The notes under the pieces: generated by a model | What the model saw: only the letters and a program-made list of their open reading frames with translations | What the model was told of the DNA's origin: nothing | Databases searched by the model: none | Shown: positions 1,426 through 18,841 of the stretch, piece after piece | How positions within the stretch are numbered: the first letter of the stretch is position 1 | Layout of the letters: each line of letters starts with the position of its first letter | Position numbers and translations under genes: made by a program | NCBI GenBank assembly: GCA_963707025.1 | Contig: CAVPOM010000008.1 | Coordinates: 64,001 to 128,000 of the forward strand | Length of the DNA: 64,000 nt | Direction of reading: 5' to 3' | DNA from: an uncultured Verrucomicrobiae bacterium | GTDB lineage: Bacteria > Verrucomicrobiota > Verrucomicrobiia > Limisphaerales > Palsa-1400

Positions 1426-2820
1426 TCAATCTTCTGGGCGTTCGCCGCTGGGCGCCATCTTCACCAGCTTGGGATCGAATTGGCCGAGGGTCGTGACCAG
1501 GTCTTTTTGTGCGGCCATCACTTCGCGGATGTTTTTATAGGCCATCGGGACTTCATCCAGTCCGGCGCTAATGAGTGTCACGCCGCGTTCGCGGAGAAGA
1601 CGGTTCACTTCTTTCCAGTTGAATTTCTGGTTGGCGGCTTTGCGGCTCATGGCGCGGCCGGCGCCGTGCGAGGCCGAGTTGAGCGAATCGGGATTTCCCT
1701 TTCCGCTCACGACATATCCCGGCGACGCCATGGAACCGGGAATGATGCCCAGGACTCCCGCCCCCGCCGGCGTGGCGCCTTTGCGATGCACGACGACCTC
1801 CCGTTCCACTCCCCCGATAACGTGCTTTTCTTTCCAGGCGAAATTGTGATGGTTTTCCAAATCGAGCAAAACCTGCGCACCGAGGTTTTCCGCGATGTGC
1901 TGGTGGATGCAGGCGTGGTTGGCTGCGGCATATCGCCCCATCAGTTCCATCGCGTTCCAGTATTCTAGTCCGGGCTGCGAATCGAGCGACAGCCAGGCCA
2001 GCCGTTTCAATTCGCTGGGCAAGTCCGCAAATTGAGCGAACGCGATTTTGCTGTAGTAATCGCAAACCGCCGCGCCCGTCCCGCGACTGCCGCTGTGCGA
2101 CAGCAGCGCGACATAAGTTCCCGGCTCAAGGCTGCTGATTTTTGAGTGCGCTGTGAACAGGCCAAACTCGACAAAATGATTTCCGCTCCCGCTGGTGCCG
2201 AGTTGCGCCCACGCACGGTCCTTGTTCTGCTTCACCACCGGGCTGATCGTCCAATCCGCATCCATCACCTCGTGGGTGCGGCGATTCCGAAACGTCGAGC
2301 CGACGCCGAAGCGCGTTTCCGCTTCGATGGCGCGGGTCAGACGGTCCTGACTGTTCTCCAAATCGCGCGCCGGAATATCCAACACCGTCATTTTCATGCG
2401 GCAGGCAATGTCCACGCCGACGGCGTAAGGAATCACGGCGTTTTCCGTTGCCAGCACGCCGCCGATGGGCAGGCCGTAGCCGACGTGTGCGTCCGGCATG
2501 AGCGCCCCCGCCACGGAAACCGGCAGCAAACAAGCTTTCTCCATTTGCATCACCGCCTCGTGTTCCAGCCCTTCGCCCCACTGCCGGTATTTCACTGGAT
2601 CGGCGCGCAGTGGAGGCGGCGCAGCAAGCAACACCTTCGCGAATTCACCGCGCAGCGGGTCGCCCGCATACGCCGACGGATTGGCCACAATGGCAGCGAC
2701 TTCTTCGCGCAACCGCGACTTGTCGCCGCCACCGAGGATGAACTTGGCAACAAAATCCGTCGCCCGCCGCGTCGCCTCGCCCAGCGGCACACCCAGTCTG
2801 ATAAAATCCTTGGTGTTCAT
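1426..2820 (-). CDS. rtcB: RtcB family RNA ligase
   Basis: MPDAHVGYGLPIGG, GVDIACRM, GTSGSGNHFVE, HSGSRG, HRKGAT, SHGAGR motifs; start taken at MNTKDF. Confidence 0.95.
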   Translation of the reverse strand: MNTKDFIRLGVPLGEATRRATDFVAKFILGGGDKSRLREEVAAIVANPSAYAGDPLRGEFAKVLLAAPPPLRADPVKYRQWGEGLEHEAVMQMEKACLLPVSVAGALMPDAHVGYGLPIGGVLATENAVIPYAVGVDIACRMKMTVLDIPARDLENSQDRLTRAIEAETRFGVGSTFRNRRTHEVMDADWTISPVVKQNKDRAWAQLGTSGSGNHFVEFGLFTAHSKISSLEPGTYVALLSHSGSRGTGAAVCDYYSKIAFAQFADLPSELKRLAWLSLDSQPGLEYWNAMELMGRYAAANHACIHQHIAENLGAQVLLDLENHHNFAWKEKHVIGGVEREVVVHRKGATPAGAGVLGIIPGSMASPGYVVSGKGNPDSLNSASHGAGRAMSRKAANQKFNWKEVNRLLRERGVTLISAGLDEVPMAYKNIREVMAAQKDLVTTLGQFDPKLVKMAPSGERPED

Positions 2821-2950
2821 GTATGAAATCGCCTTTAAACTTAATCCTCCCTGTCCCGATGACGGTAATGGGCGCTGCCCATTCTCCTCCGCGTGAGAAA
2901 GAAGACTGTGACGTGGATTTGGATTGTGTTCGATTCTCTTATGTCCTAAA

Positions 2951-5900
2951 TTACTGCATCGCCTCTGCCAATTGTGTAAAGGCAACTACCTCCTTTGGTG
3001 ATGTCGCCGAACCGCTAAAAAACTGCATTGGAACGAGGTCATCCGTGACAAGCAACCCTTTGAATCGGATCGCCGTCGCCGGAATCCCAGTCAGGGCACA
3101 CACAGCTGACGGGTTCGCCTTTAGCCAGTTTAAACGGCGCAGATGTTTTCCGAGGGAGTCTTCTCGCTCTCCTCGGTAATCGTCCAAACGCTCAACAACG
3201 TCTCGAACGCTTATCGCTGTACGCAGGCGCTTACATTCAATGACAAATATATCTGGAGAGCCGCCTTTCCAGGCCAGCACATCAACGTCTCCAAAGTCCC
3301 CGGCAGATGCAGGGCACCCAAGGGCACTCATAAAAACCTCTCGCCGCGCAACGAATCCTAGTTTTTCCGCCCGATCCGCCACGTCACGCGTGAACTGGTT
3401 ACCTTGTCGGTTCGCCTGATCTCCACAAAATGCCCGCATCGTTCTTGTTCGAAAATGTTCCGTCGGGAATGCGGATTCAGCGATATTTCCTATGATGTAA
3501 GCCGCACTTGTTTTAACCAGTGGTGGATAAACGAGCCAGATCTTGCTGGGTGCGCCCCTCAACATGACGAATGGCCGCATCAGCAGAGACAGCTGACGGC
3601 GGAATCGCCACGGCTGAACGTCTTTTTCCTGGTATCCATGTAAATCTTTGTTCCAGCCGCGGCGGGGCGGCAGTGAGAATCGTCCGATGAAAAACTCAAT
3701 GGTCTTTGCATCCAAATTGCACTCGTTCATTAGTAATGAGCGGAAACTAGCATCGTCCAACTCAAGAATTAGCTTCTGCGTTTTCAAGGCTACATGGCCG
3801 AAGCGGTTGGGAATTGCAACGAACTGATCAATTGTCACCCCAAACTCATCATGGAATGGCTGCTCCATCCGGCGTATGGTTTCGAGACTACGAGCACTCT
3901 CTTTGGGTTGGTAACTTGAAAACCAGCGGTCGTAATTTTGTGCGGAAGAATGAAAGCCCTTTTCAAAAACCGCGCGAACGTAAGGCGACATGACTGTCGC
4001 GTAGAATTCCTTGTCAAAATCCAATTCGCCATTTTGGAAGGAATGGATCTCTGGCTCCATAAATCCCTCCGAGATTGCGTCTCGATGGTTGGCTGCGCTA
4101 AAAAGGTTCTCGAACTGGGCAAGCATCTCCAAACGTGCTGCTTTCGGCATTGCGTGGCCGCCTTCTGCTGGGCATGCGTACATTGCTGTTTCAACCAACA
4201 GGCGATTGGCCAGCGTTGCCGCGTCTCTGTCGCTTCGGCGCCCTTCTGCAAACTTCAAGATTTCTTGTGGGTCGTGCAGAGCAAGCAATGCGCGCGCCGC
4301 CAGACACCAACGCTGTTCGTCCTTTTCCAATTCGGCCAAGGCGGAGAAACACGCGATCACAACCTCTCGCCGATTGAACTGCGCAAGCCCCTTTTCGATT
4401 CTCTGCCAAAGGTTGTCCACGACTCGGTGCAAGTAATCCATGCATTGCTCTCTCCCTAAGCTTTTTCCACTTGCTGAGGGCGGTCCGAGTTCATCCGCCA
4501 GCTCGATCAGGCTATGAGAGCATTCCTCCTCTGGGATGAAGTCAGGCGAAGGCCGATATGTTGCAGCCAGAATTTGAGCCCAATTCTCCGTTTTTACAAA
4601 ATGAAAGAACCGAGCCTCATCATTTGGGAAGATTGAGGTTAATAATCTGACACGGTCGTCAGCCGATATTGTGCTGCCTGCCAATTCGGCTATTGCAGCG
4701 ATTGTGCAATCAATCAACATGCGCTCTGCTTGGTTCCTCGGAGTGTGGAACTTCTCGCTAAATTCTGCAGGCAGCGTAACGACGATCGTCCGGTCGCGCC
4801 GATTGACGGATGAGGTTGGCTGAGAGGAGACTTGAGAATTGGGAATATTTTGATCAGCCCATTTGGAAAGTTCCGGCACGTCTAATTCAATCAAGATTGA
4901 TCCGGCTTGAAGGTTTCGGAACTCTTTTTCGACCACGACACCAGCTCGGTTCATCCAATTGAGCAAACAGTCCCAGAGTTGGAACAAAACGCTTTGCTCG
5001 TCGGGTATCGTGGTGTTCGCTTTAGAAACAATCCACCAATTCCGATTTGTTGTTTCAATTACCCCCATTAGCATTTTCTGCTTAGATCCTTCAAGCGCAA
5101 TATACACTGGAGCCTCCTTGTCTCTGGCATAATAAGCCTTTGCTCCACGGCGTTCTACTCGAACCCAGTGCGTGAGATCATGCGCGAGAATGGAGTGGTC
5201 GTCGTAAGCGTGCAACACCTCCTTTCGAATATCCGCTATGAAGCCAGTTCCAACGGTTAGCATCTTGTGTGGCTGAGACAGCTCCATTTGCCGTGGCACG
5301 AAACGCCAATTATTGGAACGCCAATACGCGTAGAGATTCAGCGGACCGTTAAGGTTCATAATATGGACGCCACGTTTTTCAGCCCATTCTTGATGACGCC
5401 ACATTCTCCAGAGACGGAGGGCAGACATATCATCGCACCGGGCGAGCGTGCGCCAGTCTGGCGGAGAAGCAAAAATCAAGCCCCAGTCCGGTATTTTCTT
5501 CATAGAGAGCGCCACGCCACGTCCCACACCGCCACGCGTTATGAGTGTCATGCCTCCGTTGAACTGAGGCTGCGCTTTTAAAACCGCAGCGCAATCCAAT
5601 AAATGCCTTTCAAATGAATTTTGATGTTGTGCAGTTAACTCGTCGGTATCATGGGCATCGGTCAATTCTCCAGAAACATTGCCATCGAGTAAAACAACAT
5701 GGGCATATTTTCCTTGGTCAAAACTCAAGGTGGCTTGATAAATGGTCGGGAGTTCATTTGATGGTGAAGGAAGGGCAATGTCCATCGGTTCGAAGCCAAG
5801 GCCGTGTTCAAGCGTCCGCATCCACATTGCGAATTGGCTCGTATGTAGCAGCATTTCGAAACGGCGGAGGAAGTCCGTTTCATTCAGTTGTTCGACCAAA

Positions 5901-6670
5901 AAGCGTCGAACGCTCAAAGTTACCGCGTGTGGGGCAGCTAAGACTAAATTATCAGCGAACTGGACGATTGGATATCTCTCCAAGTCGCTATGGCCGGTGC
6001 TTTGTTCTAGCAAACGCTTCCGGTCCTCTTCGGTGAACAGAAACGGGGCAAGATCTCGGCAATTAATGCCCAATTGTTGCAGGTCAGCCGGCGAAAATGT
6101 GACTGCTCGTGAGCAAGCACTTAGGTCATGCCACGGCGGAATAGCGATGCGGCCACAGAATTGAGCGGAACCAAAAGTATATCGCGGCAGTTGGCGGCGC
6201 GATGCAACGGCGTCGATGAGCTTCAGAAATGAGCGAATGTGGCTGAGGCTTGGTTTCAGCGCTTCGGGTGCGTCTGCGCGCTCAAGCGGACGCAGAATTT
6301 GCTCCACCCAATAATCGCCCGACTCTTCGATTCCGCGAAATATTCTAAAATTCCCGAAACTGGTTGCGACGTTTCCGGTAAAAGCGTCTTCGACGGGGTC
6401 CTCCAACCTCGCTAGTTCAGAACCAACGAAGTGACGGCCCGCACATTTCACCAACATTTCACGGTCTGCCTTTCGCTTTCCTGCGCAAGCGTAACAGGCC
6501 AAGTGTGCGAGCGCGTCTAGGCGAAGCGTGTTTTCGTGGTAGTGCGGCAGTGTAAGAAATCCGCCAATAAGCGGTGCCACCGAAGCGTAATCGTAGCGCT
6601 TCAGCTCATTCACTAGTCCGCGATGTTGTTGAGCCAGGTCGGCGATCTGTTTCATACGATTCAACGGCAT
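2951..6670 (-). CDS. Large hypothetical protein (~1239 aa) with C-terminal PD-(D/E)xK-like nuclease motif
   Basis: Long ORF; start MPLNRMKQ just after the HNH stop; C-terminal GDVDVLAW...IECKRL. Confidence 0.7.
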   Translation of the reverse strand: MPLNRMKQIADLAQQHRGLVNELKRYDYASVAPLIGGFLTLPHYHENTLRLDALAHLACYACAGKRKADREMLVKCAGRHFVGSELARLEDPVEDAFTGNVATSFGNFRIFRGIEESGDYWVEQILRPLERADAPEALKPSLSHIRSFLKLIDAVASRRQLPRYTFGSAQFCGRIAIPPWHDLSACSRAVTFSPADLQQLGINCRDLAPFLFTEEDRKRLLEQSTGHSDLERYPIVQFADNLVLAAPHAVTLSVRRFLVEQLNETDFLRRFEMLLHTSQFAMWMRTLEHGLGFEPMDIALPSPSNELPTIYQATLSFDQGKYAHVVLLDGNVSGELTDAHDTDELTAQHQNSFERHLLDCAAVLKAQPQFNGGMTLITRGGVGRGVALSMKKIPDWGLIFASPPDWRTLARCDDMSALRLWRMWRHQEWAEKRGVHIMNLNGPLNLYAYWRSNNWRFVPRQMELSQPHKMLTVGTGFIADIRKEVLHAYDDHSILAHDLTHWVRVERRGAKAYYARDKEAPVYIALEGSKQKMLMGVIETTNRNWWIVSKANTTIPDEQSVLFQLWDCLLNWMNRAGVVVEKEFRNLQAGSILIELDVPELSKWADQNIPNSQVSSQPTSSVNRRDRTIVVTLPAEFSEKFHTPRNQAERMLIDCTIAAIAELAGSTISADDRVRLLTSIFPNDEARFFHFVKTENWAQILAATYRPSPDFIPEEECSHSLIELADELGPPSASGKSLGREQCMDYLHRVVDNLWQRIEKGLAQFNRREVVIACFSALAELEKDEQRWCLAARALLALHDPQEILKFAEGRRSDRDAATLANRLLVETAMYACPAEGGHAMPKAARLEMLAQFENLFSAANHRDAISEGFMEPEIHSFQNGELDFDKEFYATVMSPYVRAVFEKGFHSSAQNYDRWFSSYQPKESARSLETIRRMEQPFHDEFGVTIDQFVAIPNRFGHVALKTQKLILELDDASFRSLLMNECNLDAKTIEFFIGRFSLPPRRGWNKDLHGYQEKDVQPWRFRRQLSLLMRPFVMLRGAPSKIWLVYPPLVKTSAAYIIGNIAESAFPTEHFRTRTMRAFCGDQANRQGNQFTRDVADRAEKLGFVARREVFMSALGCPASAGDFGDVDVLAWKGGSPDIFVIECKRLRTAISVRDVVERLDDYRGEREDSLGKHLRRLNWLKANPSAVCALTGIPATAIRFKGLLVTDDLVPMQFFSGSATSPKEVVAFTQLAEAMQ

Positions 6671-6723
6671 TCTACGAATTACGGCTTGGGAGAGCGAGCT
6701 TTGACGCTCGCCCTCCCGCAGTT

Positions 6724-7308
6724 TCATTCCCGCACGAACAGCCTCCATTCTGGGATGCCGTGGGCGTTGCGAATGAGGGCCGTGGCCGGCAATTCCTTCG
6801 GCGCGCGCGGCACTGAGAGCAGCTTCAGGCCGGCTTCGTGCGGCAGGCGGTTGCCTTTGCGGGCGTTCACCTCCTTCCCGGCCCAAACCAGGTTGTCCCA
6901 GGCGTTCTTGCCACCGCGCGAGCGGGGTAGGACGTGATCCATGCTGCCTTCCTCGGGGCGCAGCACACGGCCGGTGTATTGGCAGCGGTTGCCGTCGCGC
7001 TCGCGAATGGCGCGGGCGCACAGCTTCGGGCGCTTCTTGGGCACCTTGGCGTAATTCACCGCCACGATCACCGTCGGCACGCGGATTGGACCGCGGACGG
7101 TTCGCACCGCATTGTCCTGCGGGCGCATGGGCAGCGTAATCCACTCGTCCCAGGAAACGGGACGAATGTGATTTTCCCCTTCGATTTCCAGGCCGGTCGC
7201 CACGTTCGTCGCCATCATGCAGAAGGCCTCCTGCGGCGTCCGGACGTTGACGGCCTGCCAGTTGCGGTTGAGCACCAGCACCATCGCTTTGTTCAGTATG
7301 TCGTTCAT
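6724..7308 (-). CDS. HNH endonuclease (McrA-like)
   Basis: VLVLNRNWQ...RDGNRCQYTG...DHVLPRSRGGKNAWDNLV...N. Confidence 0.9.
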   Translation of the reverse strand: MNDILNKAMVLVLNRNWQAVNVRTPQEAFCMMATNVATGLEIEGENHIRPVSWDEWITLPMRPQDNAVRTVRGPIRVPTVIVAVNYAKVPKKRPKLCARAIRERDGNRCQYTGRVLRPEEGSMDHVLPRSRGGKNAWDNLVWAGKEVNARKGNRLPHEAGLKLLSVPRAPKELPATALIRNAHGIPEWRLFVRE

Positions 7309-7347: not shown

Positions 7348-7366
7348 GGTGTTTGTTCTTTGTTGA
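7348..7366. repeat. 19-bp inverted repeat, partner at 18267-18285
   Basis: ggtgtttgttctttgttga is the exact reverse complement of tcaacaaagaacaaacacc. Confidence 0.85.
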
Positions 7367-7502: not shown

Positions 7503-8207
7503 ATGAGACCTTACGTGATCTGCCACATGTGTACGACGATCGACGGTAAAATCCTGGGCGATCGTTGGGGCAAACTTCCCGGCTGCAAAGACAGCGCCAC
7601 GCTCTTCGAAACCACGGCGGCCAGCTTTGGCATCGGCGCCTGGCTTGTGGGCACGACTACGATGAAAGAATTTGCCGGGCGAAACGTGAAACTGCCCCCC
7701 GCCAGGAAACCGGTCGTTCATCGGGACCACATTGCCGACAAAAATGCCAGGCGACTGGCGATCGGTGTGGATGCGAAGGGCGTTTTGCGCTTCCAAGAGA
7801 ACGAAGTGGACGGCGATCATGTGGTCCTGCTTATCACCGATCGTGTCGGTGACGATTACCTGGCGCACCTCCAGGCCGCCGGCGTCTCCTATCTCTTCTG
7901 CGGCCAGAAGGAAGTGGACCTGCACGTTGCCCTTGGCAAGCTGGGCAGCAGTTTTCATCTACGCAAGCTGATGCTCCAGGGCGGTGGAAAGTTCAACGGC
8001 GCCATGCTCCACGCCGGGCTTGTCGATGAAATCAGCCACGTCACCGTGCCAGTCGCCGACGGCGGCGTTGGCATCTCGAGCTTTTTCGACATTCCCGGCA
8101 ACCCGCCGCCCAAATCCGCTGCCACTCTCCGCCTCCTGTCGTGGAAACGACTGCCAGGCAGCGTGACGTGGCTGCGCTACCGCGTCGTCGTTAAGCATAC
8201 GCGCTGA
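7503..8207 (+). CDS. RibD C-terminal / dihydrofolate reductase family protein
   Basis: MRPYVICHMCTTIDGKI, LMLQGGGKFNGAMLHAGLVDEI. Confidence 0.85.
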   Translation: MRPYVICHMCTTIDGKILGDRWGKLPGCKDSATLFETTAASFGIGAWLVGTTTMKEFAGRNVKLPPARKPVVHRDHIADKNARRLAIGVDAKGVLRFQENEVDGDHVVLLITDRVGDDYLAHLQAAGVSYLFCGQKEVDLHVALGKLGSSFHLRKLMLQGGGKFNGAMLHAGLVDEISHVTVPVADGGVGISSFFDIPGNPPPKSAATLRLLSWKRLPGSVTWLRYRVVVKHTR

Positions 8208-8278: not shown

Positions 8279-8353
8279 TGGCTGCCTCGCCCGGTTTTGC
8301 TCCAGGTCCTCCGGTGTCAGAGACCGGCGCGCTCCTGATTACGCCACGAGGCA
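8279..8353 (-). tRNA. tRNA-Gln(CUG)
   Basis: Cloverleaf; anticodon arm ccggt-ctCTGac-accgg; encoded CCA. Confidence 0.85.
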
Positions 8354-8388
8354 ATGGCCCGCCGAGCGGCAGCCCGGAGGGAGAAGAT

Positions 8389-8462
8389 TGGTCGCCCGGG
8401 GAGGTTCTGCCCCTCCGATTTCTGGGTGTAGGCCAGACGTGATGCTATTTCACCACCGGGCG
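8389..8462 (-). tRNA. tRNA-Val(UAC), C33
   Basis: tctgg-ccTACac-ccaga; encoded CCA. Confidence 0.75.
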
Positions 8463-8467
8463 GAAAT

Positions 8468-8542
8468 TGGCTGCGGGAGCCGGGTTCGCACCGACAACTG
8501 CGCTTTCAAAGAGCGCCGAGTTGCTGGTTACTCCATCCCGCA
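8468..8542 (-). tRNA. tRNA-Gln(UUG)
   Basis: gcgct-ctTTGaa-agcgc; CCA. Confidence 0.85.
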
Positions 8543-8548
8543 ACAAAA

Positions 8549-8625
8549 TGGTGGAGCCGGAGGTAGTTGCAACCTCACCATACCGGATTAAAAGTCCGGT
8601 GCCGGTCTTCTGTGGCATCAGCTCC
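8549..8625 (-). tRNA. tRNA-Lys(UUU)
   Basis: ccgga-ctTTTaa-tccgg; CCA. Confidence 0.85.
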
Positions 8626-8837: not shown

Positions 8838-9602
8838 TTGCATCAAAAAAGCTGGCAAAATGGTGTCGTTCACCCTATATTTACACACATAAATGCATCA
8901 CCAGATGACATCCGAAAAGCGGCAGTGGCCGACGCTCGAAGGACGCTTGAGTCAGCCGCTCACTTCACGCGTGGAGGCGGTGCGCCAGCTCCAGACCACG
9001 ATGCCGATTACGCCTGTCGCGCAGGCCGTGTTGAAGCGGAGCAACGGCACCTCATCCAATGGGCCAAAGAAAACGGGAAACTAGGCTCAAGCGGTCGGTT
9101 GCCGCCCGTGTTTGCTCAGGGTGGAGAGCATGATGTCTTTTTTCAAAAATGCACCCAGCGGTATCTCAAGGCGACACGGCAGGATCGACACAAGGGATAC
9201 GGCATTGCCCTCGGTTCGCACACGCACGGTGCAACCCCTGCCGAGTATCTCGACCGTCTCTTCCTTCAGAACTGCATTTTCGATGATGATATTCGGCTTG
9301 AGCGCGTCGTGCAGAACGATGGCAAACCCATAATTATCACATCCCAACCAGCCATCAAAGGAAGCACCCCACGGCAAGACGGACTGGACGAATTGATGAT
9401 CGGGAAGGGCTACGAAAAACTGGCAGAAGGGGCTTATTACGATGAAGGGGCCGGCCTATTGCTGTACGACCTTTTCCCTCGCAACGCCATCCAAGCTGCC
9501 GACGGACATATTTATCCCATTGATCCCGTCATCCAACGCATTACGCCGGACTTTGGGCAGTTTTTGCGGCATGAGCCTTACACGATCGACCTCCCCCGCT
9601 AA
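8838..9602 (+). CDS. Polyvalent-protein-type kinase domain protein (start uncertain)
   Basis: GGEHDV, ATPAEYLDRLFLQNCIFDDDIRL, DLFPRNA...IDPVI resemble the Kinase-PolyVal family. Confidence 0.7.
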   Translation: MHQKSWQNGVVHPIFTHINASPDDIRKAAVADARRTLESAAHFTRGGGAPAPDHDADYACRAGRVEAEQRHLIQWAKENGKLGSSGRLPPVFAQGGEHDVFFQKCTQRYLKATRQDRHKGYGIALGSHTHGATPAEYLDRLFLQNCIFDDDIRLERVVQNDGKPIIITSQPAIKGSTPRQDGLDELMIGKGYEKLAEGAYYDEGAGLLLYDLFPRNAIQAADGHIYPIDPVIQRITPDFGQFLRHEPYTIDLPR

Positions 9603-9768: not shown

Positions 9769-9773
9769 GAAAA

Positions 9774-9865: not shown

Positions 9866-9869
9866 AGAT

Positions 9870-9953: not shown

Positions 9954-9954
9954 G

Positions 9955-11192: not shown

Positions 11193-11193
11193 A

Positions 11194-11267: not shown

Positions 11268-11278
11268 GCGAAAGTATC

Positions 11279-11372
11279 CCCAAGCACGCTGAATCTGGCG
11301 TTTGGCCAGATGGCCGTGCGCAAGCACCTTCGACCGTGCGGAGTCTCTGCCGGCAGGCCAGATTCACTTGGG
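11279..11372 (-). ncRNA. Putative structured small RNA
   Basis: Closing stem cccaag-tgaatctggc / gccagattca-cttggg. Confidence 0.4.
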
Positions 11373-11375
11373 AAA

Positions 11376-11466
11376 TGGTCGGGCATCAGGGTAACGCGCC
11401 CTGTATTCCGGTTTGGAAGGCGTTTGCACGCGGCCATCAGCGTGTTTCTCTCAACACCTATGCCCG
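11376..11466 (-). tRNA. tRNA-Gly(UCC)-like with ~16-nt insertion in the anticodon stem
   Basis: cgggcat/atgcccg ACCA, loop ctTCCaa, 91 nt long. Confidence 0.55.
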
Positions 11467-11522: not shown

Positions 11523-12269
11523 ATGACGATTCCGGCTGAATTGGTCCAACGTCTTGCCACTGCCAAAAGCGTGACCGTGCTCACAGGCGCTGGCGTATCC
11601 GCGGAAAGCGGCGTCCCCACCTTTCGCGATGCCCAAACCGGCCTGTGGGCCAAATACAGTCCCGAAGAACTGGCCACTCCGCGCGCCTTCCGACGCAATC
11701 CCCGCCTCGTTTGGGAGTGGTATGAGTGGCGGCGGAAGCTTGTCGCCGGCGCCAAACCAAACCCAGCGCACTTCGCCTTGGTGGAAATGGAGGGCCTCTT
11801 TCTGCGGTTCCATCTCATTACGCAAAACGTGGACGGTCTTCATCAACGCGCCGGAAGCCGGCACGTCATCGAGCTGCACGGCAATATCACGCGCACGAAA
11901 TGCTCCGACGAAAGCACGATTGTTTCGAGTTGGAAAGACACGGGTGACGTCCCGCCGAAATGTTCGGCCTGTGGCGGCCTGTTGCGCCCCGATGTGGTTT
12001 GGTTCGAAGAGCCGATGCCGGAAGAGGAGATGCAAGAGGCCATGACGGCGAGCACGCATTGCGACTTCTTCTTCTCCATTGGGACATCCACCGTTGTTTA
12101 TCCGGCGGCCGCCCTGCCATCGGAGGCATTGCGCAGCGGAGCGACCGTGGTGGAGATCAATCCGCAACCCACACCATTCACGCCGCAGGCGCATTTGGCT
12201 CTGGCTGGGGCGGCCGGGGTTGTGTTGCCCGAATTGGTGAGGGCTATCAGCGCCTCGCGCCGCTTTTGA
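11523..12269 (+). CDS. cobB: NAD-dependent protein deacylase (sirtuin)
   Basis: TGAGVSAESGVPTFRD, ITQNVDGLH, ELHG, RPDVVWF. Confidence 0.9.
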   Translation: MTIPAELVQRLATAKSVTVLTGAGVSAESGVPTFRDAQTGLWAKYSPEELATPRAFRRNPRLVWEWYEWRRKLVAGAKPNPAHFALVEMEGLFLRFHLITQNVDGLHQRAGSRHVIELHGNITRTKCSDESTIVSSWKDTGDVPPKCSACGGLLRPDVVWFEEPMPEEEMQEAMTASTHCDFFFSIGTSTVVYPAAALPSEALRSGATVVEINPQPTPFTPQAHLALAGAAGVVLPELVRAISASRRF

Positions 12270-12272
12270 AAA

Positions 12273-12347
12273 TGGAATCCCGCGTGGGGGGCGCACCCAC
12301 TTTTGCGGCTTTGCAGGCCGCCGCCTGAGCTGTTCGGCCAACGGGAC
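12273..12347 (-). tRNA. tRNA-Cys(GCA)
   Basis: gcggc-ctGCAaa-gccgc; U73 CCA. Confidence 0.85.
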
Positions 12348-12352: not shown

Positions 12353-13099
12353 TCAGATTTCGACGACCAATGAAGGATTAAACCCTTTGCAGCGCTCATC
12401 CGGGTAGCCCAGTTGATTTGTCAGGATACGGGTTGACCCCATCACGTAGTCCACGTTGTAATGCGTGTGTCCGTGGATCCAGAGAGGAACGCCACTCTGT
12501 TCGACCAACGAGTCCAAGTCGGAAGCAAACGCCGCTTTAAGTGGACTGTCCGCGTGATAGAGCGCTTCTGACCGGGCACTCGGTGCATGATGCGTCACAA
12601 CGATGGTGCGGGCGCGATCACATTTGGCCAGCGCGCGGCGCAGCCAGGCGACAGATTCCGCGTGCAATCTGGCGGTGTCACATGCGCGCAGCCTGCGATT
12701 TTCTGTGCTGAACTGAACGATGCCGTAGTCGCTCATGATGGCCTCAGCTACGCGCATCGATCCATCCAGATCGTCACCCAACTGAAAATCTGTCCATAAG
12801 GTGCATCCCAAGAACGTGTAGCCGTTGATTTCCACGGCGTCGTTCTCCAGCAGATGGATGTTGCTGCCATCTGTTTCTCGTTTCAGGGTTTCGGTCAGCT
12901 CGGGCAAGGAGTGGCGATAGAACTCGTGGTTTCCTAAAACGTAAATGACCGGCTTGGCGAAGAATTGATTTCTCGCCCAGATACGCCCTTCGCGGCCAAG
13001 ATGAACGTCACCCGCCAACACCACGACATCCGCGTCGGTCACGGGGATTTTGACTGCTCCGAATTCAAAGTGCAGATCGGCCAAAATGTGTAAACGCAT
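12353..13099 (-). CDS. Metallophosphoesterase
   Basis: DLH, GD, GNHE, HH, HGHTH motifs. Confidence 0.9.
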   Translation of the reverse strand: MRLHILADLHFEFGAVKIPVTDADVVVLAGDVHLGREGRIWARNQFFAKPVIYVLGNHEFYRHSLPELTETLKRETDGSNIHLLENDAVEINGYTFLGCTLWTDFQLGDDLDGSMRVAEAIMSDYGIVQFSTENRRLRACDTARLHAESVAWLRRALAKCDRARTIVVTHHAPSARSEALYHADSPLKAAFASDLDSLVEQSGVPLWIHGHTHYNVDYVMGSTRILTNQLGYPDERCKGFNPSLVVEI

Positions 13100-13198
13100 A
13101 GGTAACTTTATGTTAGGTGAAAATTGGTTAGGAGTTCAAAGTGCGGGCGGAAGCTTCCGCCTCCGCCCGCGTTGTTCCTGGCGTCCTTGAACCGTTCG

Positions 13199-14906
13199 CT
13201 ATTCGCGAACAAAGTCCGCAATGACGGCTGGCACCGTCGTGTCGAAGCCGACCACGTCCAGCATGCCCGCGGTCGTTTGGGTCGGCGAGGGTGAAGCCGT
13301 TGGAGGTCATGCCCACAACGACCGCCTTCGCGTCGCCGACGAACTCGTCGCGATACTGGCGCAGGGCCTGGGCCGGATGGATGTTGCCCGCCCACGTCTC
13401 GCTGTCCGTATAGGTGATAAACGCCGACACGTTCAGCTTGTTGCGGGCGGCCCACACCATCGGCAGGGCGCAATCCGTGCCACCCATTGGGATGGCTTCG
13501 ATGCGCTTGATGACGTCGGCCAATCTCATGCGCGGCGAGAGGTTCACACGGGTGATGCCCGGTTCGCCGCCGCCGTGCATGCCACCGTAACCACCGCCCG
13601 CCGGAGCCGAGAACGCGATGATCTCGCATTCCGGTTCGGTTGCGGCCGTGATCAGTGCCATCGCCGCGCTGGCTTCGCGGGCCGAGATGCACGAACCCGC
13701 GATCATGGAACCATCCATCGAGCCGCTTACGTCAAGCGCGAGCAGCACCGGCTTGTTGCACGGTTCCACGTTCTGGAACGTCGCGTAAAACGCTTCGTCC
13801 AGCGCGTCCACCACCGCCGACACCGGCGACCACGCAAGCGAACCCTTGTCGCCGTGACCCTGGGCGTAGACCTTCTGCGCCACAAGGACCGCCAGCGGGT
13901 GGATGCGCGCACGCTTGAGCGCCATCTCGTCCTGCAGCTTGCGGACGATCAATCGCTTGGAGTCGCTGAACGGAGCCAGCAGACCGAGGCTCGTCATCTT
14001 GCCGAGGTTGCGGATCATCGCCGTCATCGGCATACGTTCCAGCAAGGCCTCCCACACAACGACTTCATTGAGCCACTGCGTTGGGATGGCTTCGCGCGGC
14101 AGGTCGAACTCGTTGATGATCTTCACGATCTCGTCCGCGCTCAATGCGCGCTTGGCCCGCTCGAAGGCTTCGATGAGCTTCGGCAGTGCGCCGACCGGGC
14201 CATACTTCGCGACACGGTCTTCACCGCGCACTCTGCGCTTCACTTCGCGTTCACCCAACGAATCCGCATGGGAAGCGGAACCTCCGCACAGCAACCAGCG
14301 GAACACCGATTCGTGCTGGGCCGACGGAGCCTTTGGGTGAGCAAGGCGAAGAAGGTCGCCGTGCGACCAACCGTCGCGTTGCTGGTACTTGACCGCCTGG
14401 TGCGCAAGATCATCGGCATCGCGGTAAACATACCAGTCGCCAACGGCGTTGCGCAGGCCACGGCCCCAGCCGCGCATGGCATTGACGTATTCGGCGAAGT
14501 GGAACAAGTGCGTGCCAATGCGGCAGACCTTGTTCAGGCTCGCAAACGCGAGCGCCTTCGCCTGGGCATCACCATGCGTGACGGCCAGCGCGAGGGCGAA
14601 GATGGCCGGATCGTTCTTGGGCGCGCGTCCGGCATCGCTGATCTCAACGATGCGGTTGACGGCACGGACTCCGTCGGCCCTGATGCAGCGGAGAATCGCC
14701 TCGTGGTTCTGCTTCACGAGATCGCGTTCCGCGATGTAATACGTGCCTCCTTCGGCGCCGAGGACGAGGAAACGGTCGAGCCGCGTCCAGTCATCCACTT
14801 CCCACGAGAAGCCGCCGCCCGAATTGCGAACCTGGTTCGCGCCCGGGATCGGCTGCGACTGCGGGGTGATGCGGCGATTAAACTGACGTGCGTAATTGAT
14901 AGCCAT
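13199..14906 (-). CDS. rsr: TROVE-domain Ro60 orthologue (frameshift near C-terminus)
   Basis: RLDRFLVLGAEGGTYY, KYQQRDGWSHGDLLRLAHP, vWA DVSGSM; tail MLDVVGFD lies in another frame. Confidence 0.95.
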
Positions 14907-14965
14907 GGTGGCCTCCTTCTTGTGAGCGTGCCGCCAACTTCCGGCACGGGTTTTCTATCGGTTAA

Positions 14966-15033
14966 ACTGCGGACAAGTTGGTGAACGTGGGATGGTCATT
15001 CGTAGTGATAACCCATGTTCTTCGGCCCGCAGT
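14966..15033 (-). ncRNA. Minimal Y RNA (Ro-binding stem only)
   Basis: gcgggccga...cttgtccgc stem and gggttatc motif shared with the other five copies. Confidence 0.7.
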
Positions 15034-15047
15034 CAATGGGCTTGCGA

Positions 15048-15295
15048 TTATTCGCGGAAAAAAGTGATTCCTCAGAGCGCCGTCATATCGTCCGGAGCGG
15101 AGGCAGCATTTCTTAAAAGCTGCGTCCGGAGCCGCATGGGCAGAGGTCGTTCCGCCCCAGCTTTTCGCTGAGTTCCTTATTCCCGTGAACGAGGCGCACG
15201 CCGCGTTTGACGTTCGTTTCGGACGGGAAGCCCTTGCGGCGTTTGCTGGTGATTTCGAAACTGGCGTCTTCATGATCATGTGTGTTGTTTGCCAT
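15048..15295 (-). CDS. SEC-C motif protein (two homopolymer frameshifts)
   Basis: [15 protein letters not shown] continuing KKCC in a shifted frame. Confidence 0.8.
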
Positions 15296-15357: not shown

Positions 15358-15465
15358 GATGGGCAAGGGACGACCCGGGAATTGCTCTATCCACTGAGCT
15401 ACTCCTCGTTGCCGAGGAGACTGGATTCGAACCAATGACCGATAACCCGATGTCTTCGGCCCATC
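15358..15465 (-). ncRNA. Y RNA (YrlA-like)
   Basis: gggccga/ttgccc Ro stem; permuted tRNA domain with T arm ttcgaat, closed acceptor stem and D arm. Confidence 0.85.
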
Positions 15466-15473
15466 AAATTGAA

Positions 15474-15598
15474 AGCGGGCAAGAAAGCGACCGTGGAATT
15501 GCCCAGCGTGCTGCCTTTACACCACTGCGGAACGCTCCGCGGGACGGAATTGAACCGCCGCTGCCGGGTTATCGAGAACCCACAATTTACGGCCCGCT
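15474..15598 (-). ncRNA. Y RNA (YrlA-like)
   Basis: Ro stem; T arm ggcgg-ttcaatt-ccgtc, closed acceptor, D arm. Confidence 0.8.
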
Positions 15599-15607
15599 GA
15601 AAGGGAC

Positions 15608-15736
15608 CGACGGATAAGAAACGAACTGGGAATTTACGTGCTCTACCCCTGAGCTACCCCGGCATTGGAGCCGGAGGCGGGACTCGAACCCGCAACCTCG
15701 TCGTTATCAGCGATAACCCAATCCTGCGACCCGTCG
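15608..15736 (-). ncRNA. Y RNA (YrlA-like)
   Basis: Ro stem; T arm gcggg-ttcgagt-cccgc, D arm tagctcaggggtagagc. Confidence 0.85.
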
Positions 15737-15745
15737 AAAAAGCCG

Positions 15746-15859
15746 CGACGGACAAAGAGCGATATGGGAAACAATCGGTCGCCCGATTGCGCGGGGTTCG
15801 AACCCGCTCATCCCGCAGTGCGGAACTTTTCCAGATAACCCATGATCAACGACCCGTCG
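15746..15859 (-). ncRNA. Y RNA variant
   Basis: Ro stem, gggttatc motif, T arm gcggg-ttcgaac-cccgc. Confidence 0.7.
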
Positions 15860-15866
15860 GAAAAAC

Positions 15867-16004
15867 TCGATGGACAAGTGCTGCCGCAGATAGGGATTCG
15901 CAAGCGGGAATCGAACCCGCGTCACCAAACTCACGTTCGGCGGCTCTCTCACGGTGAGCAACCACCCCTGTTGGAGCGATAACCTGCAACATTCGGCCCA
16001 TCGA
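15867..16004 (-). ncRNA. Y RNA variant
   Basis: gatgggccga/cttgtccatc stem, ggttatc motif, T arm gcggg-ttcgatt-cccgc. Confidence 0.7.
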
Positions 16005-16007: not shown

Positions 16008-16083
16008 TGGTCAGGAAGCCGGGATTTGCACCCGGACCGTCGCGTTCACAACGCGGAATGCTGCTGTTACACCACAATCCTGA
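16008..16083 (-). tRNA. tRNA-His(GUG), A73 with U at -1
   Basis: ccgcg-ttGTGaa-cgcga; ACCA. Confidence 0.75.
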
Positions 16084-16090
16084 TTTGAAA

Positions 16091-16166
16091 TGGAGCCCCT
16101 GGTCGGACTCGCACCGACGAATACGAGTTTACGAAACTCGCCCTGTGGCTGCTGAGGCACAGGGGC
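16091..16166 (-). tRNA. tRNA-Thr(CGU)
   Basis: cgagt-ttCGTaa-actcg; CCA. Confidence 0.85.
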
Positions 16167-16170
16167 ACAA

Positions 16171-16248
16171 TGGTGTCCACGGCAGGAATCGCGCCTGCGA
16201 CCTCCACCTTCGCGCGGTGGCGCTCTGATCTAACTGAGCTACGCGGAC
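16171..16248 (-). tRNA. tRNA-Arg(GCG) (identity tentative)
   Basis: ccacc-gcGCGaa-ggtgg; ACCA. Confidence 0.65.
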
Positions 16249-16251
16249 AAT

Positions 16252-16329
16252 TGGCATCCGTGATCGGACTTTCACCGATTAGGCCCGGCTTGAAAGACCG
16301 GCTGCTCGATCTGCTTTGCATTCACGGAC
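16252..16329 (-). tRNA. tRNA-Glu(UUC)
   Basis: ccggt-ctTTCaa-gccgg; GCCA. Confidence 0.85.
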
Positions 16330-16333
16330 AGGA

Positions 16334-16409
16334 TGGCCGCTGGAGTCGGAATTGCGCCGACACTTCCTGTGCTTCAAGCAGGTGTGCAGACTGACTACAC
16401 CATCCAGCG
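16334..16409 (-). tRNA. tRNA-Phe(GAA)
   Basis: cctgc-ttGAAgc-acagg; CCA. Confidence 0.7.
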
Positions 16410-16417
16410 GGCAAAGC

Positions 16418-16636
16418 GGTGCGCGGCAGCTTGGGTCAGCTACCTTGAAGGGCTGTCTAAGAAGCTTGAGCCTTGCGGGCTGCGGCTTGCATTTTGAACG
16501 AGCTGACCGATGTGGTTTGACAACTCGGCATCAACATCAGCAGGTAATTGGATTTTCGGTCCAATAAGGAACGTTTAGAGCGCTCCAGATTTTGACAGCG
16601 TGCTCCATCGGCGGCATTCCGCCACCACCGCGCACC
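16418..16636 (-). ncRNA. Putative ~220-nt structured RNA downstream of the DIP1984-family gene
   Basis: Closing stem ggtgcgcgg/ccgcgcacc, inner ggtcagct/agctgacc stem, repeated CAA motifs. Confidence 0.55.
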
Positions 16637-16658
16637 TGAATCAGAACCGCTGGCGGAA

Positions 16659-17105
16659 TCAAGGATTCACGCTGCGGGTGAAGTTGAACTCGTCCAGCGC
16701 ATCTTGCAGCGACTGAATTTCGGCGTTCAACTCGGTGACAAGTTTGTCCACGTCCACCTTGCCGAGCTGGGCGACATATTCGACCTCGTAGCTTGCATCG
16801 GCAAAACCGCGTCCTTCGTGGAAAACGCCGGCCTTGGTGTCCAGCGCGTTCAACGTGGTGGCCAGACCCTTGAGTTCCGCCAGCCGGAAAATCCGGTCGT
16901 AGATTTCCACGTTGGCGGCCGCGACGGCGGCCTTGACCTTGACCAATTCGTCGAGCTTAACGCGCAGGCGCGTCAAGACTTCGCGATTGTCGTAGTCGAA
17001 CTTCTGTTTAGTGGAACGGGAGTTTTGTTTGGTGAGCAGATCCTTCAACTGGGCGACTTCGCCGGCCAGTTGGTTTTTCATTTTAAGTGCTTTGGCGATT
17101 TTCAT
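16659..17105 (-). CDS. DIP1984-family coiled-coil protein
   Basis: MKIAKALKMKNQL...LQDALDEFN pattern typical of the family. Confidence 0.7.
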   Translation of the reverse strand: MKIAKALKMKNQLAGEVAQLKDLLTKQNSRSTKQKFDYDNREVLTRLRVKLDELVKVKAAVAAANVEIYDRIFRLAELKGLATTLNALDTKAGVFHEGRGFADASYEVEYVAQLGKVDVDKLVTELNAEIQSLQDALDEFNFTRSVNP

Positions 17106-17146: not shown

Positions 17147-17220
17147 TGGTCGTCCCGGCAGGTAACGCTCCTGCTTCTTCCGGTTATCGACCGGAGGCTC
17201 TGCTTTTGAGCTACGAGACG
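17147..17220 (-). tRNA. tRNA-Ile(GAU)
   Basis: tccgg-tcGATaa-ccgga; ACCA. Confidence 0.8.
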
Positions 17221-17230
17221 GTGGTTAATT

Positions 17231-17323
17231 GAGGCTTCACGCCAAAACGATGCGCGGGGCGGAACACAAGATTGAGCTTCGTGGTCGGGCGGATTCGAAT
17301 GCCACGTTTTGGCTTGTAGCTTC
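17231..17323 (-). ncRNA. Putative structured small RNA
   Basis: gaagct..gccaaaacg / cgttttggc..agcctc stem enclosing ttcgaatcc. Confidence 0.4.
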
Positions 17324-17394
17324 GACGAAAAGGGCATTGACTTTGATGCCGCATTATGGGTTTCACGGGATTTCCTTTCGTTGAGGGTTAAAAC

Positions 17395-17481
17395 TGGCGG
17401 ATGGTGTAGGGATCGCACCCACGCAGCCCGCAGGCTCACTCGGTTTTCAGGACCGGGGCATTACTTCTCTGCCAACCATCC
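17395..17481 (-). tRNA. tRNA-Ser(UGA)
   Basis: Loop ccTGAaa, long variable arm, GCCA. Confidence 0.8.
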
Positions 17482-17489
17482 GTACAAAT

Positions 17490-17563
17490 TGGCTGCCAGA
17501 CTTGGACTCGCACCAAGACAAGCGGCTTAACAGGCCACCGTGCTACTTTGACACCACCTGGCA
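17490..17563 (-). tRNA. tRNA-Asn(GUU)
   Basis: gtggc-ctGTTaa-gccgc; GCCA. Confidence 0.85.
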
Positions 17564-17564
17564 A

Positions 17565-17640
17565 TGGCGCTGCCGGCAGGATTCTCACCTGCATCTATCC
17601 GCTTAGAAGACGGATGCCTGATTTGTTCGGCCACGGCAGC
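17565..17640 (-). tRNA. tRNA-Arg(UCU)
   Basis: tccgt-ctTCTaa-gcgga; GCCA. Confidence 0.85.
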
Positions 17641-17647
17641 GTTGAAA

Positions 17648-17723
17648 TGGTCGGAATGGCAGGATTTTCACCTGCGGCCTCCCGGTCCCAAGCCGGGTGC
17701 TCTAAAGACTGAGCTACATTCCG
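17648..17723 (-). tRNA. tRNA-Pro(UGG)
   Basis: cccgg-ctTGGga-ccggg; C1-G72, A73. Confidence 0.85.
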
Positions 17724-17730
17724 TGAAAAA

Positions 17731-17806
17731 TGGCGGACCCGAAGGGAGTTGCACCCTCAACCCTCCCGCAGACAACGGGGCGCTCTGCTGATTGAGCTAC
17801 GGATCC
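17731..17806 (-). tRNA. tRNA-Asp(GUC)
   Basis: ccccg-ttGTCtg-cggga; GCCA. Confidence 0.8.
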
Positions 17807-17810
17807 GAAA

Positions 17811-17898
17811 TGGTGGGAAGTGCTGGTAATGCTCCAGTCGTCGCTTCCGACATGTTTTGAGACGTCCGGGTTACGGCCGGATTGCCGGATCACTTCCC
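17811..17898 (-). tRNA. tRNA-Tyr(GUA) lacking a canonical D arm
   Basis: 8-bp acceptor gggaagtg/cacttccc ACCA, tccgg-ccGTAac-ccgga, large variable region, 4-bp T stem. Confidence 0.65.
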
Positions 17899-17904
17899 TG
17901 AGAT

Positions 17905-17977
17905 TGGTAGCGGGGGTGGGAGTTGCGCCCACGGAGGCTGAGCTTATGGGGCTCGCCTGAATCTCATTCTCCCCGCA
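17905..17977 (-). tRNA. tRNA-Met(CAU), initiator-like acceptor, short D arm
   Basis: gagc-ccCATaa-gctc; 1:72 mismatch, gcgggg acceptor. Confidence 0.7.
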
Positions 17978-17983
17978 GTGAAA

Positions 17984-18058
17984 TGGTGGAGTCGGTGGGT
18001 AGCGCGCCCACATCAACCTGCTTGCAGGGCAGGTGCATTGCTTGTCTGCCACGACCCC
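17984..18058 (-). tRNA. tRNA-Ala(UGC)
   Basis: cctgc-ccTGCaa-gcagg; G3:U70. Confidence 0.85.
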
Positions 18059-18064
18059 GGAAAA

Positions 18065-18136
18065 TGGCAGGCTGCCTCCGTGCTGCCCGGAGTAAGCTGA
18101 GTTTTGGAGACTCGGCCGCGTGCTGACGCTCAGCCT
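18065..18136 (-). tRNA. tRNA-Trp(CCA), short D arm
   Basis: gagt-ctCCAaa-actc; G73 CCA. Confidence 0.75.
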
Positions 18137-18145
18137 GTGCATGAA

Positions 18146-18220
18146 TGGTGCGGCTGCCGGGAGTTGCGCCCGGACTTCCTCCATGGCGAGGAGATATTCT
18201 GCTGCTTAAATCACAGCCGC
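18146..18220 (-). tRNA. tRNA-Gly(GCC)
   Basis: tctcc-tcGCCat-ggagg; ACCA. Confidence 0.8.
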
Positions 18221-18221: not shown

Positions 18222-18258
18222 AAAGTAAAAGGGCCGGGAGCGTTCAGGCTCCCGGCCC
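18222..18258 (-). terminator. Terminator-like hairpin between leader RNA and first tRNA
   Basis: gggccgggagc-ctgaac-gctcccggccc followed by ttttactt. Confidence 0.6.
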
Positions 18259-18266: not shown

Positions 18267-18518
18267 TCAACAAAGAACAAACACCTCTTGGTGATCTATG
18301 CGATCCCAACCCGCGGTTTCACGGCGGCTGTTTCGGTGTTTAGGGGCACACCTCCTGCGAAGCCCTTGATATGTAAATCTAAAATTCGTCTCGCTCGTCT
18401 TGATGACGCTGTCTTCCGGTCATGGGCAGACCCCACCGGTGAGGCTTCTCTGCTCGTCCTCGCCAAATTCAAGTTGTCGCCAGAAGACATCACCTGGATG
18501 TCGCTTTGTTCTTGTTCA
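18267..18518 (-). ncRNA. Putative ~250-nt structured leader RNA
   Basis: Ends pair (aacaagaacaaa / tttgttctttgtt); several internal hairpins. Confidence 0.5.
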
Positions 18519-18567
18519 CAGATTGTCCGTCTTTCGTCGTCACTCGTTCACATTCATGGTGTTCAGG

Positions 18568-18606
18568 AAAAATAAAAAACCCTGCTTGCATTTCGGCAAG
18601 CAGGGT
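18568..18606 (-). terminator. Attenuator intrinsic terminator
   Basis: accctgcttgc-cgaaat-gcaagcagggt then tttttattttt. Confidence 0.85.
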
Positions 18607-18628: not shown

Positions 18629-18799
18629 TTACCTGCTTGCCATGAGTCTATCCAACTTGACCTGTTGTTCCGACGCGGTCCTGGATAGGCTAAGGCTAAA
18701 CACACTACCCGGGTTATACCGGCTATGACGTGTCCCAATGGTCATTGGGGCCGTCGTAATCGGCCAACTCGTGGCTGATATGTTTAAGCAAGTTTTCAT
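18629..18799 (-). CDS. Putative attenuator leader peptide (56 aa)
   Basis: MKTCLNISATSWPITTAPMTIGTRHSRYNPGSVFSLSLSRTASEQQVKLDRLMASR*; begins just after the promoter; last codons form the antiterminator strand. Confidence 0.7.
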   Translation of the reverse strand: MKTCLNISATSWPITTAPMTIGTRHSRYNPGSVFSLSLSRTASEQQVKLDRLMASR

Positions 18800-18812
18800 T
18801 GAACTTATGCGA

Positions 18813-18841
18813 AAGCTATCATGGCGTGTTCATGTCGTCAA
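18813..18841 (-). promoter_or_regulatory. Sigma70-type promoter
   Basis: TTGACG-17 nt-TAGCTT with extended -10 TG and AT-rich upstream tract. Confidence 0.7.

Follow-up and report, generated by a model that had tools for sequence, protein, structure and literature searches.

A 17-kb run of transfer RNA (tRNA) genes interspersed with genes for RNA repair lies on the minus strand of the stretch analysed here, the 64,000-nucleotide window at positions 64,001 to 128,000 of contig CAVPOM010000008.1 (contig C8 of a 6.96-Mb, 88%-complete genome) from an uncultured Verrucomicrobiae bacterium. We think it likely that this block is an L-array-type accessory tRNA array carrying RNA-repair cargo, and that ribosome-coupled attenuation turns it on. 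Its leader samples all 20 amino acids and terminates in a predicted stop/go switch, so that transcription of the block probably requires slowed ribosomes. The core of this leader was found at no fewer than 119 loci, and the named records, among the 80 titles listed, were mostly Verrucomicrobiota, several of them labelled Limisphaerales. Leader matches, short ones counted, were present in 34 of 61 relatives, 300 genomes of the phylum gave two weak matches, and viral contigs gave no exact match to the leader core. The array stretch occurred mostly in peat or soil metagenome runs. We retrieved 40 stretches, of which 13 from 10 genomes, window included, are complete arrays (leader to HNH gene on one contig); the window's own genome holds a second collinear array on contig C2, with a leader 89% identical, and a headless third copy on contig C4.

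The leader opens with a 56-codon open reading frame, ORF1 (Table 1). All 20 amino acids were encoded in 15 of 22 ORF1 homologues in a first set and in 49 of 62 distinct homologues in a second, overlapping set, in which 60 encoded at least 19; among the 119 loci behind the second set, 46 were too short and 11 of the other 73 could not be parsed. The expected frequency is 2.8% from 56-residue windows of the genome's ORFs and 8.8% from shuffles. In column-shuffled leaders all 20 amino acids were retained in 33%, as opposed to 79% observed, with 0 of 2000 shuffles reaching the observed value, and after thinning to 31 sequences the figures were 29% and 71%, in a test that shared ancestry of the homologues and alignment shifts can inflate and from which short and unparsed loci are missing. 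These shuffle nulls indicate, therefore, that rare residues shift position within ORF1 yet are retained.

The end of ORF1 is complementary to the 5′ arm of T1, the strongest terminator of the region, and in 56 of 62 homologues (search window of 28 nucleotides) the antiterminator strand finished precisely at the stop codon. Pairing was kept in 93% of antiterminator and 97% of terminator cells, with two-sided changes, versus 28–52% in slid controls, figures that come from related sequences and are not a probability. When nascent RNA was folded with a ribosome footprint at codon 10, 25 or 40, the antiterminator reached P≥0.7 in 22, 21 and 22 of 22 leaders, respectively. In the trpL, hisL and pheL attenuators the antiterminator likewise shares sequence with the end of a short ORF and is in competition with an intrinsic terminator; the window leader differs in sampling all 20 amino acids, not a run of one, and in apparently gating tRNA and repair genes. 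Thus, a trp-type attenuator layout, predicted to be sensitive to slow decoding of any amino acid, is well supported. Provided that the leader is translated, a ribosome reaching the ORF1 stop would let the terminator form, and a ribosome lagging at any ORF1 codon would let the antiterminator strand pair with the terminator arm, so that transcription runs on; read-through would follow when any tRNA is scarce or damaged, or when the ribosome is poisoned. Beyond T1 lies a second conserved frame, ORF2, and a purely non-coding RNA was rejected as the sole reading of this post-terminator region, where the frame was kept in 17 of 19 sequences and insertions and deletions were in-frame. A search of window positions 1–20000 against Rfam (to E 10) returned neither GOLLD nor any other family for the leader.

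The original prediction held that control is by attenuation rather than by a transcription factor. The first half stands, since a leader-peptide attenuator is well supported, but the exclusion is unsafe, because a conserved operator-like motif lies at fixed spacing upstream of the promoter. By the promoter that we place from the alignment, the leader mRNA would be nearly leaderless. Of 63 upstream regions, 40 contained a match to the motif (3.9% of shuffles did), and 26 of these 40 had it at −87 to −89 relative to the ATG; the pattern had been derived from the same set. The motif matrix also scored the C2 copy and a site before an ORF that, on our own reading of its translation, is methionine-synthase-like, and the motifs of SahR and SamR share ATC-10 nt-GAT with it (PMC4239095). 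A DNA-binding regulator probably acts on the promoter too. One explanation built on these observations is that switching is mostly the work of a protein bound at the motif, after the precedent of TrcR on the cyanobacterial trn operon (PMC10272220), and that the attenuator only fine-tunes. However, 23 of the 63 leaders lack the motif and keep ORF1 and the switch, no regulator gene was seen to accompany the array in the loci inspected (no profile search was made), and the window's own copy of the motif lacks one base and is displaced outward by 10 bases. We therefore regard this explanation as unlikely and prefer an attenuator as the main switch. A sigma54 promoter, the type expected with RtcR, had four matches in the window versus seven expected by chance, none at the leader. 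The original prediction saw no rtcR or rtcA, and the 88%-complete genome likewise gave no match to either, with working positive controls.

The array itself comprises 27 intact-looking and two broken tRNA genes. The original prediction had counted 28 for all 20 amino acids; the coverage was correct, and the count was revised by scan and by eye. Standard tools saw only part of the set: ARAGORN at default settings called 11 array tRNAs, and Rfam found about 19 when judged by E-value. More than half of the array tRNAs are missed at the ARAGORN default and at Rfam gathering thresholds, and ARAGORN below -ps90 floods with false calls. A cloverleaf scan free of any T- or D-loop prior found 24 genes between 8200 and 18300 (23 intact and the broken Gly-TCC), while 80,800 control bases of the window yielded none. 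Reading by eye supplied four more, Met, Tyr, His and Arg-TCG, the last two of which ARAGORN found as well. The CCA end is encoded in 26 of the 27 intact-looking genes, in line with the prediction that nearly all would carry it. A separate canonical set, as had been supposed, is present: 47 dispersed housekeeping genes (51 ARAGORN rows minus four false calls) cover all 20 amino acids, and the array is thus supernumerary. The two sets differ at the elbow: all 27 array tRNAs have G at position 55 of the T-loop, and 46 of 47 housekeeping tRNAs have a TTC loop; the D-loop GG is absent from the 11 ARAGORN-called array tRNAs and present in 46 of 47 housekeeping tRNAs (scored as loss of GG only, A18 not being formally numbered). 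Methionine is supplied by a single initiator-like array gene in which 1:72 is unpaired.

An array with such elbows could instead serve mainly in anti-phage or anti-toxin conflict, its G55 tRNAs evading or soaking up anticodon nucleases, its Y RNAs acting as decoys beside HNH and Upx-like effectors, and translation backup being secondary. The Upx-like gene, the G55 difference and the canonical T-loops of five of six Y-like RNAs agree with this, as does the report that the Anabaena array is dispensable for translation recovery (PMC8421152). Yet a single one of the 13 complete arrays carries the Upx-like gene, no amino acid lacks an anticodon, and the tRNAs have intact arms and CCA ends. The switch would be identical under this explanation and under translation backup, and the purpose alone would differ. 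We give conflict as the main purpose little credence and retain translation backup.

In rRNA operons a boxA sequence is combined with a leader-trailer processing helix. The array appears to be framed alike, by an 18-base head strand before the first tRNA and a complementary tail 40 bases before the HNH start, here enclosing tRNA and protein genes. Across the 6.96-Mb genome the 18-mer has four exact copies, which lie at both ends of the two complete arrays, and a tail with one mismatch follows the array remnant on C4. The best head partner lay just before the HNH gene in 13 of 13 complete arrays, 3.3–11.9 kb away (by a small margin in L056). The head shares 10 bases with a site in the genome's 16S-23S spacer that we take to be boxA-like, and the genome encodes RNase III and NusB. 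A pre-rRNA-like stalk is the likeliest interpretation of the pair. Transposon ends were considered and rejected, though not decisively: no target duplication was visible by eye, and the head always accompanies the leader.

Comparison of the 13 complete arrays separated a constant core from variable cargo. Leader, head and tail were present in all 13, and tRNA genes were collinear in relatives, split into blocks by ORFs. In contrast, full-length Rsr was found in 4 of 13 and any full-length rtcB in 6 of 13; rtcB of the window type followed HNH in three (plus one stub), and a different RtcB lay inside the array in three. DIP1984-like genes occurred in three, SEC-C in two, the phosphoesterase in two and Sir2 in four. 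Downstream genes are undercounted because several contigs end soon after HNH. In L056 rtcB directly follows HNH, and in L039 and L040 other genes intervene, so the HNH-rtcB slot takes variable inserts. The same leader also precedes rtcB in three loci nearly without tRNAs (L050, L052 and L059). By this comparison the window is an unusually full copy and its 17-kb span is core plus passengers, and we infer that the Upx-like gene joined it later, as did the four antisense genes. The proposal of one module that replaces and repairs tRNA is supported for an accessory tRNA set beside the canonical one, whereas a single module is weakened by the contrast between patchy Rsr, rtcB and Upx-like genes and the constant leader and helix. 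Similarly, tRNA and repair genes share the minus strand as predicted, but four genes within the block lie on the other. The patchy cargo, the four antisense inserts, the two broken tRNAs and the headless C4 copy would suit a mobile tRNA island in decay that is also an insertion hotspot, is transcribed from several promoters and serves no coordinated function here. We consider decay very improbable, given that leader, switch, head and tail are intact in the window and conserved across families of the order, that another genus (L039) has the rtcB-arfB-dtd flank in common with the window, and that related contigs lack the breaks in Rsr and tRNA-Arg.

Within the cargo, the SEC-C gene contains a conserved frame change. 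Of 28 SEC-C loci examined, 21 were orthologous, three held unrelated, in-frame SEC-C domains and four lacked the motif; in 21 of the 21 orthologous loci, an invariant TTT with T or C as the next base preceded the second half of the SEC-C motif, which lay in the +1 frame. Sequencing error was rejected as the cause, the break being kept across the orthologues with no gap in two related contigs. In prfB-type +1 frameshifting a slippery codon precedes a stop. The zero-frame codon after TTT was TAA in 14 loci, TAG in one, CAA in four and CCG in two, so that 15 of 21 resemble prfB, with re-pairing of tRNA-Phe possible; unlike prfB, the gene is a small SEC-C gene and a sense codon follows in 6 of 21. 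The pattern is consistent with slippage of tRNA-Phe during slow reading of the following codon, and transcriptional slippage may be the cause instead. We regard the site as a new candidate for programmed +1 frameshifting.

Six Y RNAs had been predicted. Six Y-like units were found by a shared 5′ motif, most with a matching 3′ strand, all upstream of rsr and within 1.1 kb of it, inside the 4 kb expected of bacterial Y RNAs, which also have tRNA-like T and D arms, but Rfam YrlA/Y matches covered only three, each below the gathering score. The YrlA matches had E-values of 8e-7 and 8.5e-6 (43 and 40 bits versus a gathering score of 69), and the sixth unit matched a nematode-labelled family. The canonical TTC T-loop is kept in five of the six. 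Among the proteins, Pfam recovered RtcB, HNH, TROVE+vWA, metallophosphoesterase and SEC-C as predicted; the DIP1984 assignment was weak (NCBIfam 23 bits versus a cut-off of 70, E 6.6e-5 over the full length; a sequence search of the PDB gave no relative under E 0.4), and the large putative nuclease gave way to a Upx-like protein. The Upx model scored 550 bits against a curated cut-off of 1900, with a full-length PADLOC match of 502 bits; on these scores the large ORF is a distant Upx relative, and we read it as a defence insert. The structured RNA after the DIP1984-like gene, for which the same Rfam search returned no family, was found in three other genomes, each time after the same gene, with two-sided change at 9 of 55 pairs (five sequences). 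The conserved 51-residue basic ORF, for which no family and no usable Atlas match were found, was present in 10 of 13 complete arrays and 26 of 41 loci overall, one of them truncated (a spurious row, L062, having been dropped).

Several observations, the stated limits of the column test among them, weigh against an attenuated rescue operon. In full-length folds at equilibrium the terminator won in 21 of 22 leaders, so the switch depends on folding order, and the zero antiterminator with a ribosome at the stop codon is so by construction. T2 sits downstream of the switch, and folding gave no clear second switch at ORF2/T2. The conserved upstream motif discussed above belongs here too. For the closing helix, tail changes comprised seven that are wobble-compatible and four mismatches. 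Because no two-sided change involves the head, its RNA pairing is unproven by covariation, and because the tail is A/C-rich, the wobble-compatible changes are weak support. The repair genes are absent from most complete arrays. In the window assembly Rsr is interrupted and two tRNA genes are broken; the Rsr break and the extra base in tRNA-Arg(TCG) (8-nucleotide loop in the window, 7 elsewhere) are each absent from contigs of two related runs and are therefore assembly errors or strain lesions. Finally, the material from RNA runs consists of contigs only (four runs, of which X15, X16 and X20 span the array), which carry no level, strand or ends and are possibly DNA; a deep X16 bin over the DIP1984-linked RNA and an uncovered Upx-like gene were not used as evidence.

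With these points weighed, an attenuated array remains the reading that we prefer. Its transcript would be framed like a pre-rRNA, with a boxA-like head and a closing helix probably cut by RNase III; the spare tRNAs would be charged, Rsr, Y RNAs, phosphoesterase and RtcB would clear or mend cut RNA, and full-length SEC-C protein would appear mainly when decoding after the Phe codon is slow. More tentatively, and with less confidence than in the attenuated array itself, we propose a self-contained translation rescue system: ribosome health would be sensed at two levels (the all-20 attenuator and the SEC-C +1 gate), processing would be pre-rRNA-like, nucleases that read the T-loop would miss tRNAs with rebuilt elbows, Y RNAs with canonical elbows would serve on Rsr as decoys, and RtcB would mend host tRNAs. 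If attenuation is correct, a bacterium without RtcR would sense tRNA damage via the ribosome itself, through a leader that samples every amino acid; one locus would join tRNA replacement, as in L-arrays, to tRNA repair by Rsr, Y RNA and RtcB, and the leader, as a 230-base part, would be a candidate general translation-stress reporter.

The array-plus-RtcB idea itself has been published, as L-arrays with HNH and rtcB under TrcR, and so have RtcR-controlled Rsr-Y-RtcB operons (PMC8421152, PMC10272220, PMC4201824, PMC7790460, PMC3711429, PMC7824862). L-arrays are described as long, non-periodic tRNA arrays that are supernumerary to a housekeeping set, patchily spread by horizontal transfer and silent until translational stress, with tRNAs that become charged; they are listed for Verrucomicrobia, and in Anabaena they are induced by translational stress, are co-regulated with HNH and rtcB and are not needed for translation recovery (PMC8421152). 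The trn operon of Anabaena sp. PCC 7120 resembles the window in its long supernumerary tRNA array and its HNH and rtcB neighbours (PMC8421152). There, the operon is switched by TrcR, a repressor on promoter direct repeats over the −10 box (PMC10272220), whereas here a different conserved motif lies upstream of the −35. The all-20 leader attenuator, the head-tail pair, the G55 tRNAs, Rsr and Y RNAs inside the array and a downstream HNH gene also set the window apart, and the main text of PMC8421152 makes no mention of attenuation, Y RNA or Ro60. Salmonella rsr-yrlBA-rtcBA likewise brings Rsr, Y RNAs and RtcB together, with tRNA damage as the signal (PMC7790460); here, by contrast, the genome gave no match to RtcR or RtcA, the leader has no sigma54 site, and the block holds six Y-like RNAs and a full tRNA set. 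In the searchable, mostly open-access literature we found no description of tRNA-operon attenuation, of tRNA clusters with Ro60 and RtcB, of boxA or processing stems on tRNA arrays, of A18/G55 arrays, of SEC-C frameshifting or of DIP1984; these points may be touched by Figure 6B and the datasets of PMC8421152, and by the cluster tables of PMC3711429. We conclude that the predicted regulatory architecture is the novel part, which the comparison supports well.

Table 1. Features of the array and its leader in window coordinates, from the promoter side downstream.
Feature	Position	Strand	Basis
Conserved upstream DNA motif, candidate operator	18884..18906	-	fuzzy pattern match
Inferred sigma70-type promoter (-35, 17-nt spacer, extended -10)	18813..18841	-	read from alignment; below consensus-scan threshold
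Leader ORF1, 56 codons, all 20 amino acids; final codons (18632-18641) are the antiterminator strand	18629..18799	-	
Intrinsic terminator T1; the ORF1 end would alternatively pair with its 5′ arm (18595-18604)	18579..18606	-	
9-codon upstream ORF overlapping the start of conserved 64-codon ORF2 (3′ third a structured RNA)	18296..18519	-	
Head strand of leader-trailer pair, boxA-like	18268..18285	-	
Terminator-like hairpin T2, ahead of first tRNA	18231..18258	-	
Ten tRNA genes: Gly, Trp, Ala, Met (initiator-like), Tyr, Asp, Pro, Arg-TCT, Asn, Ser-TGA	17395..18220	-	cloverleaf scan and by eye
Conserved 51-residue basic ORF with ribosome-binding site	17211..17366	-	
tRNA-Ile(GAT)	17147..17220	-	cloverleaf scan
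DIP1984-like protein (weak match)	16659..17105	-	
Structured RNA of about 225 nt, 3′ of DIP1984-like gene	16412..16645	-	z -2.9
tRNA Phe, Glu, Arg-GCG, Thr, His	16008..16409	-	ARAGORN, cloverleaf scan
Five Y-RNA-like units, canonical TTC T-loops; three of YrlA layout	15360..16004	-	
SEC-C gene, conserved +1 frame change at TTT-Y (15113-15118); possible second shift near 15060	15048..15295	-	
Sixth, short Y-RNA-like unit	14962..15036	-	
Rsr/Ro60 (TROVE+vWA); +1 break near 13267, near C-terminus	13128..14906	-	Pfam
Calcineurin-like metallophosphoesterase	12353..13099	-	Pfam
tRNA-Cys	12273..12347	-	ARAGORN
Sir2-family deacylase, antisense passenger	11526..12269	+	
Broken tRNA-Gly(TCC) (11376-11466), two orphan hairpin RNAs (z -3.4, -3.6), tRNA-Lys(CTT)	11118..11466	-	
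Frameshifted short-chain dehydrogenase, antisense passenger	10264..11110	+	
tRNA Arg-TCG, Leu-CAG, Leu-TAA, Leu-CAA, Ser-GCT, broken Ile-TAT (9676-9768)	9676..10209	-	
Kinase-PolyVal gene, antisense passenger	8838..9602	+	
tRNA Lys-TTT, Gln-TTG, Val-TAC, Gln-CTG	8279..8625	-	cloverleaf scan
RibD-C reductase-like gene, antisense passenger	7503..8207	+	
Tail strand, exact complement of head 10.9 kb upstream	7348..7365	-	
HNH endonuclease	6724..7308	-	Pfam
Upx-like anti-phage protein, low-GC insert (51.5% vs 61-65% for neighbours)	2951..6700	-	
RtcB ligase, catalytic motifs present; only rtcB found in genome	1426..2820	-	

Parts of the leader were also seen in other settings. Fragments of the ORF2 core are dispersed in L060-L065 (genome G009), ending where the head strand starts, beside short low-complexity repeats; L066 (G059) has the ORF2 core and head with another terminator and upstream leader. 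In the C2 copy (C2:112858-112915) and L013, ORF2 carries a 63-base hairpin insertion that preserves the reading frame. The tRNA-poor operons behind the leader in L050, L059 and L068 encode a basic ORF, a second RtcB type, a protein of 207–211 residues and a gene that, read by eye, is isocitrate-lyase-like.

Several tRNA genes are unusual in themselves. The array tRNA-Phe (16334-16409) has G at position 37 in 18 of the 20 loci listed, which could bear on the TTT-Y frameshift. The three tRNA-Leu genes (9870-10125) have additional bases between the acceptor and D stems and a short variable loop, an array tRNA-Arg has anticodon GCG, and relatives contain a long-armed tRNA with anticodon TAT. The interrupted tRNA-Gly(TCC) has a stand-alone second copy with an identical 22-base insert at C13:15718-15810. 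Further +1 changes occur at TTT-TY runs near the SEC-C start or end in some copies (the 5′ part of the gene in L047 and L049, and window 15048-15066).

A hipBA-like pair lies between the last tRNA and the tail of the third array (C4:154090-155695), in the slot held by RibD-C in the window. Upstream of the leader, an NADH:flavin oxidoreductase gene (18960-20052) is apparently frameshifted near its start. At the other end, positions 416-1416 hold an ArfB-like peptidyl-tRNA hydrolase gene on the plus strand, convergent with rtcB and 9 bases away from it, followed on the array strand by a D-aminoacyl-tRNA deacylase gene, in the same order as in L039; given this shared arrangement, the transcript may extend beyond 1426.

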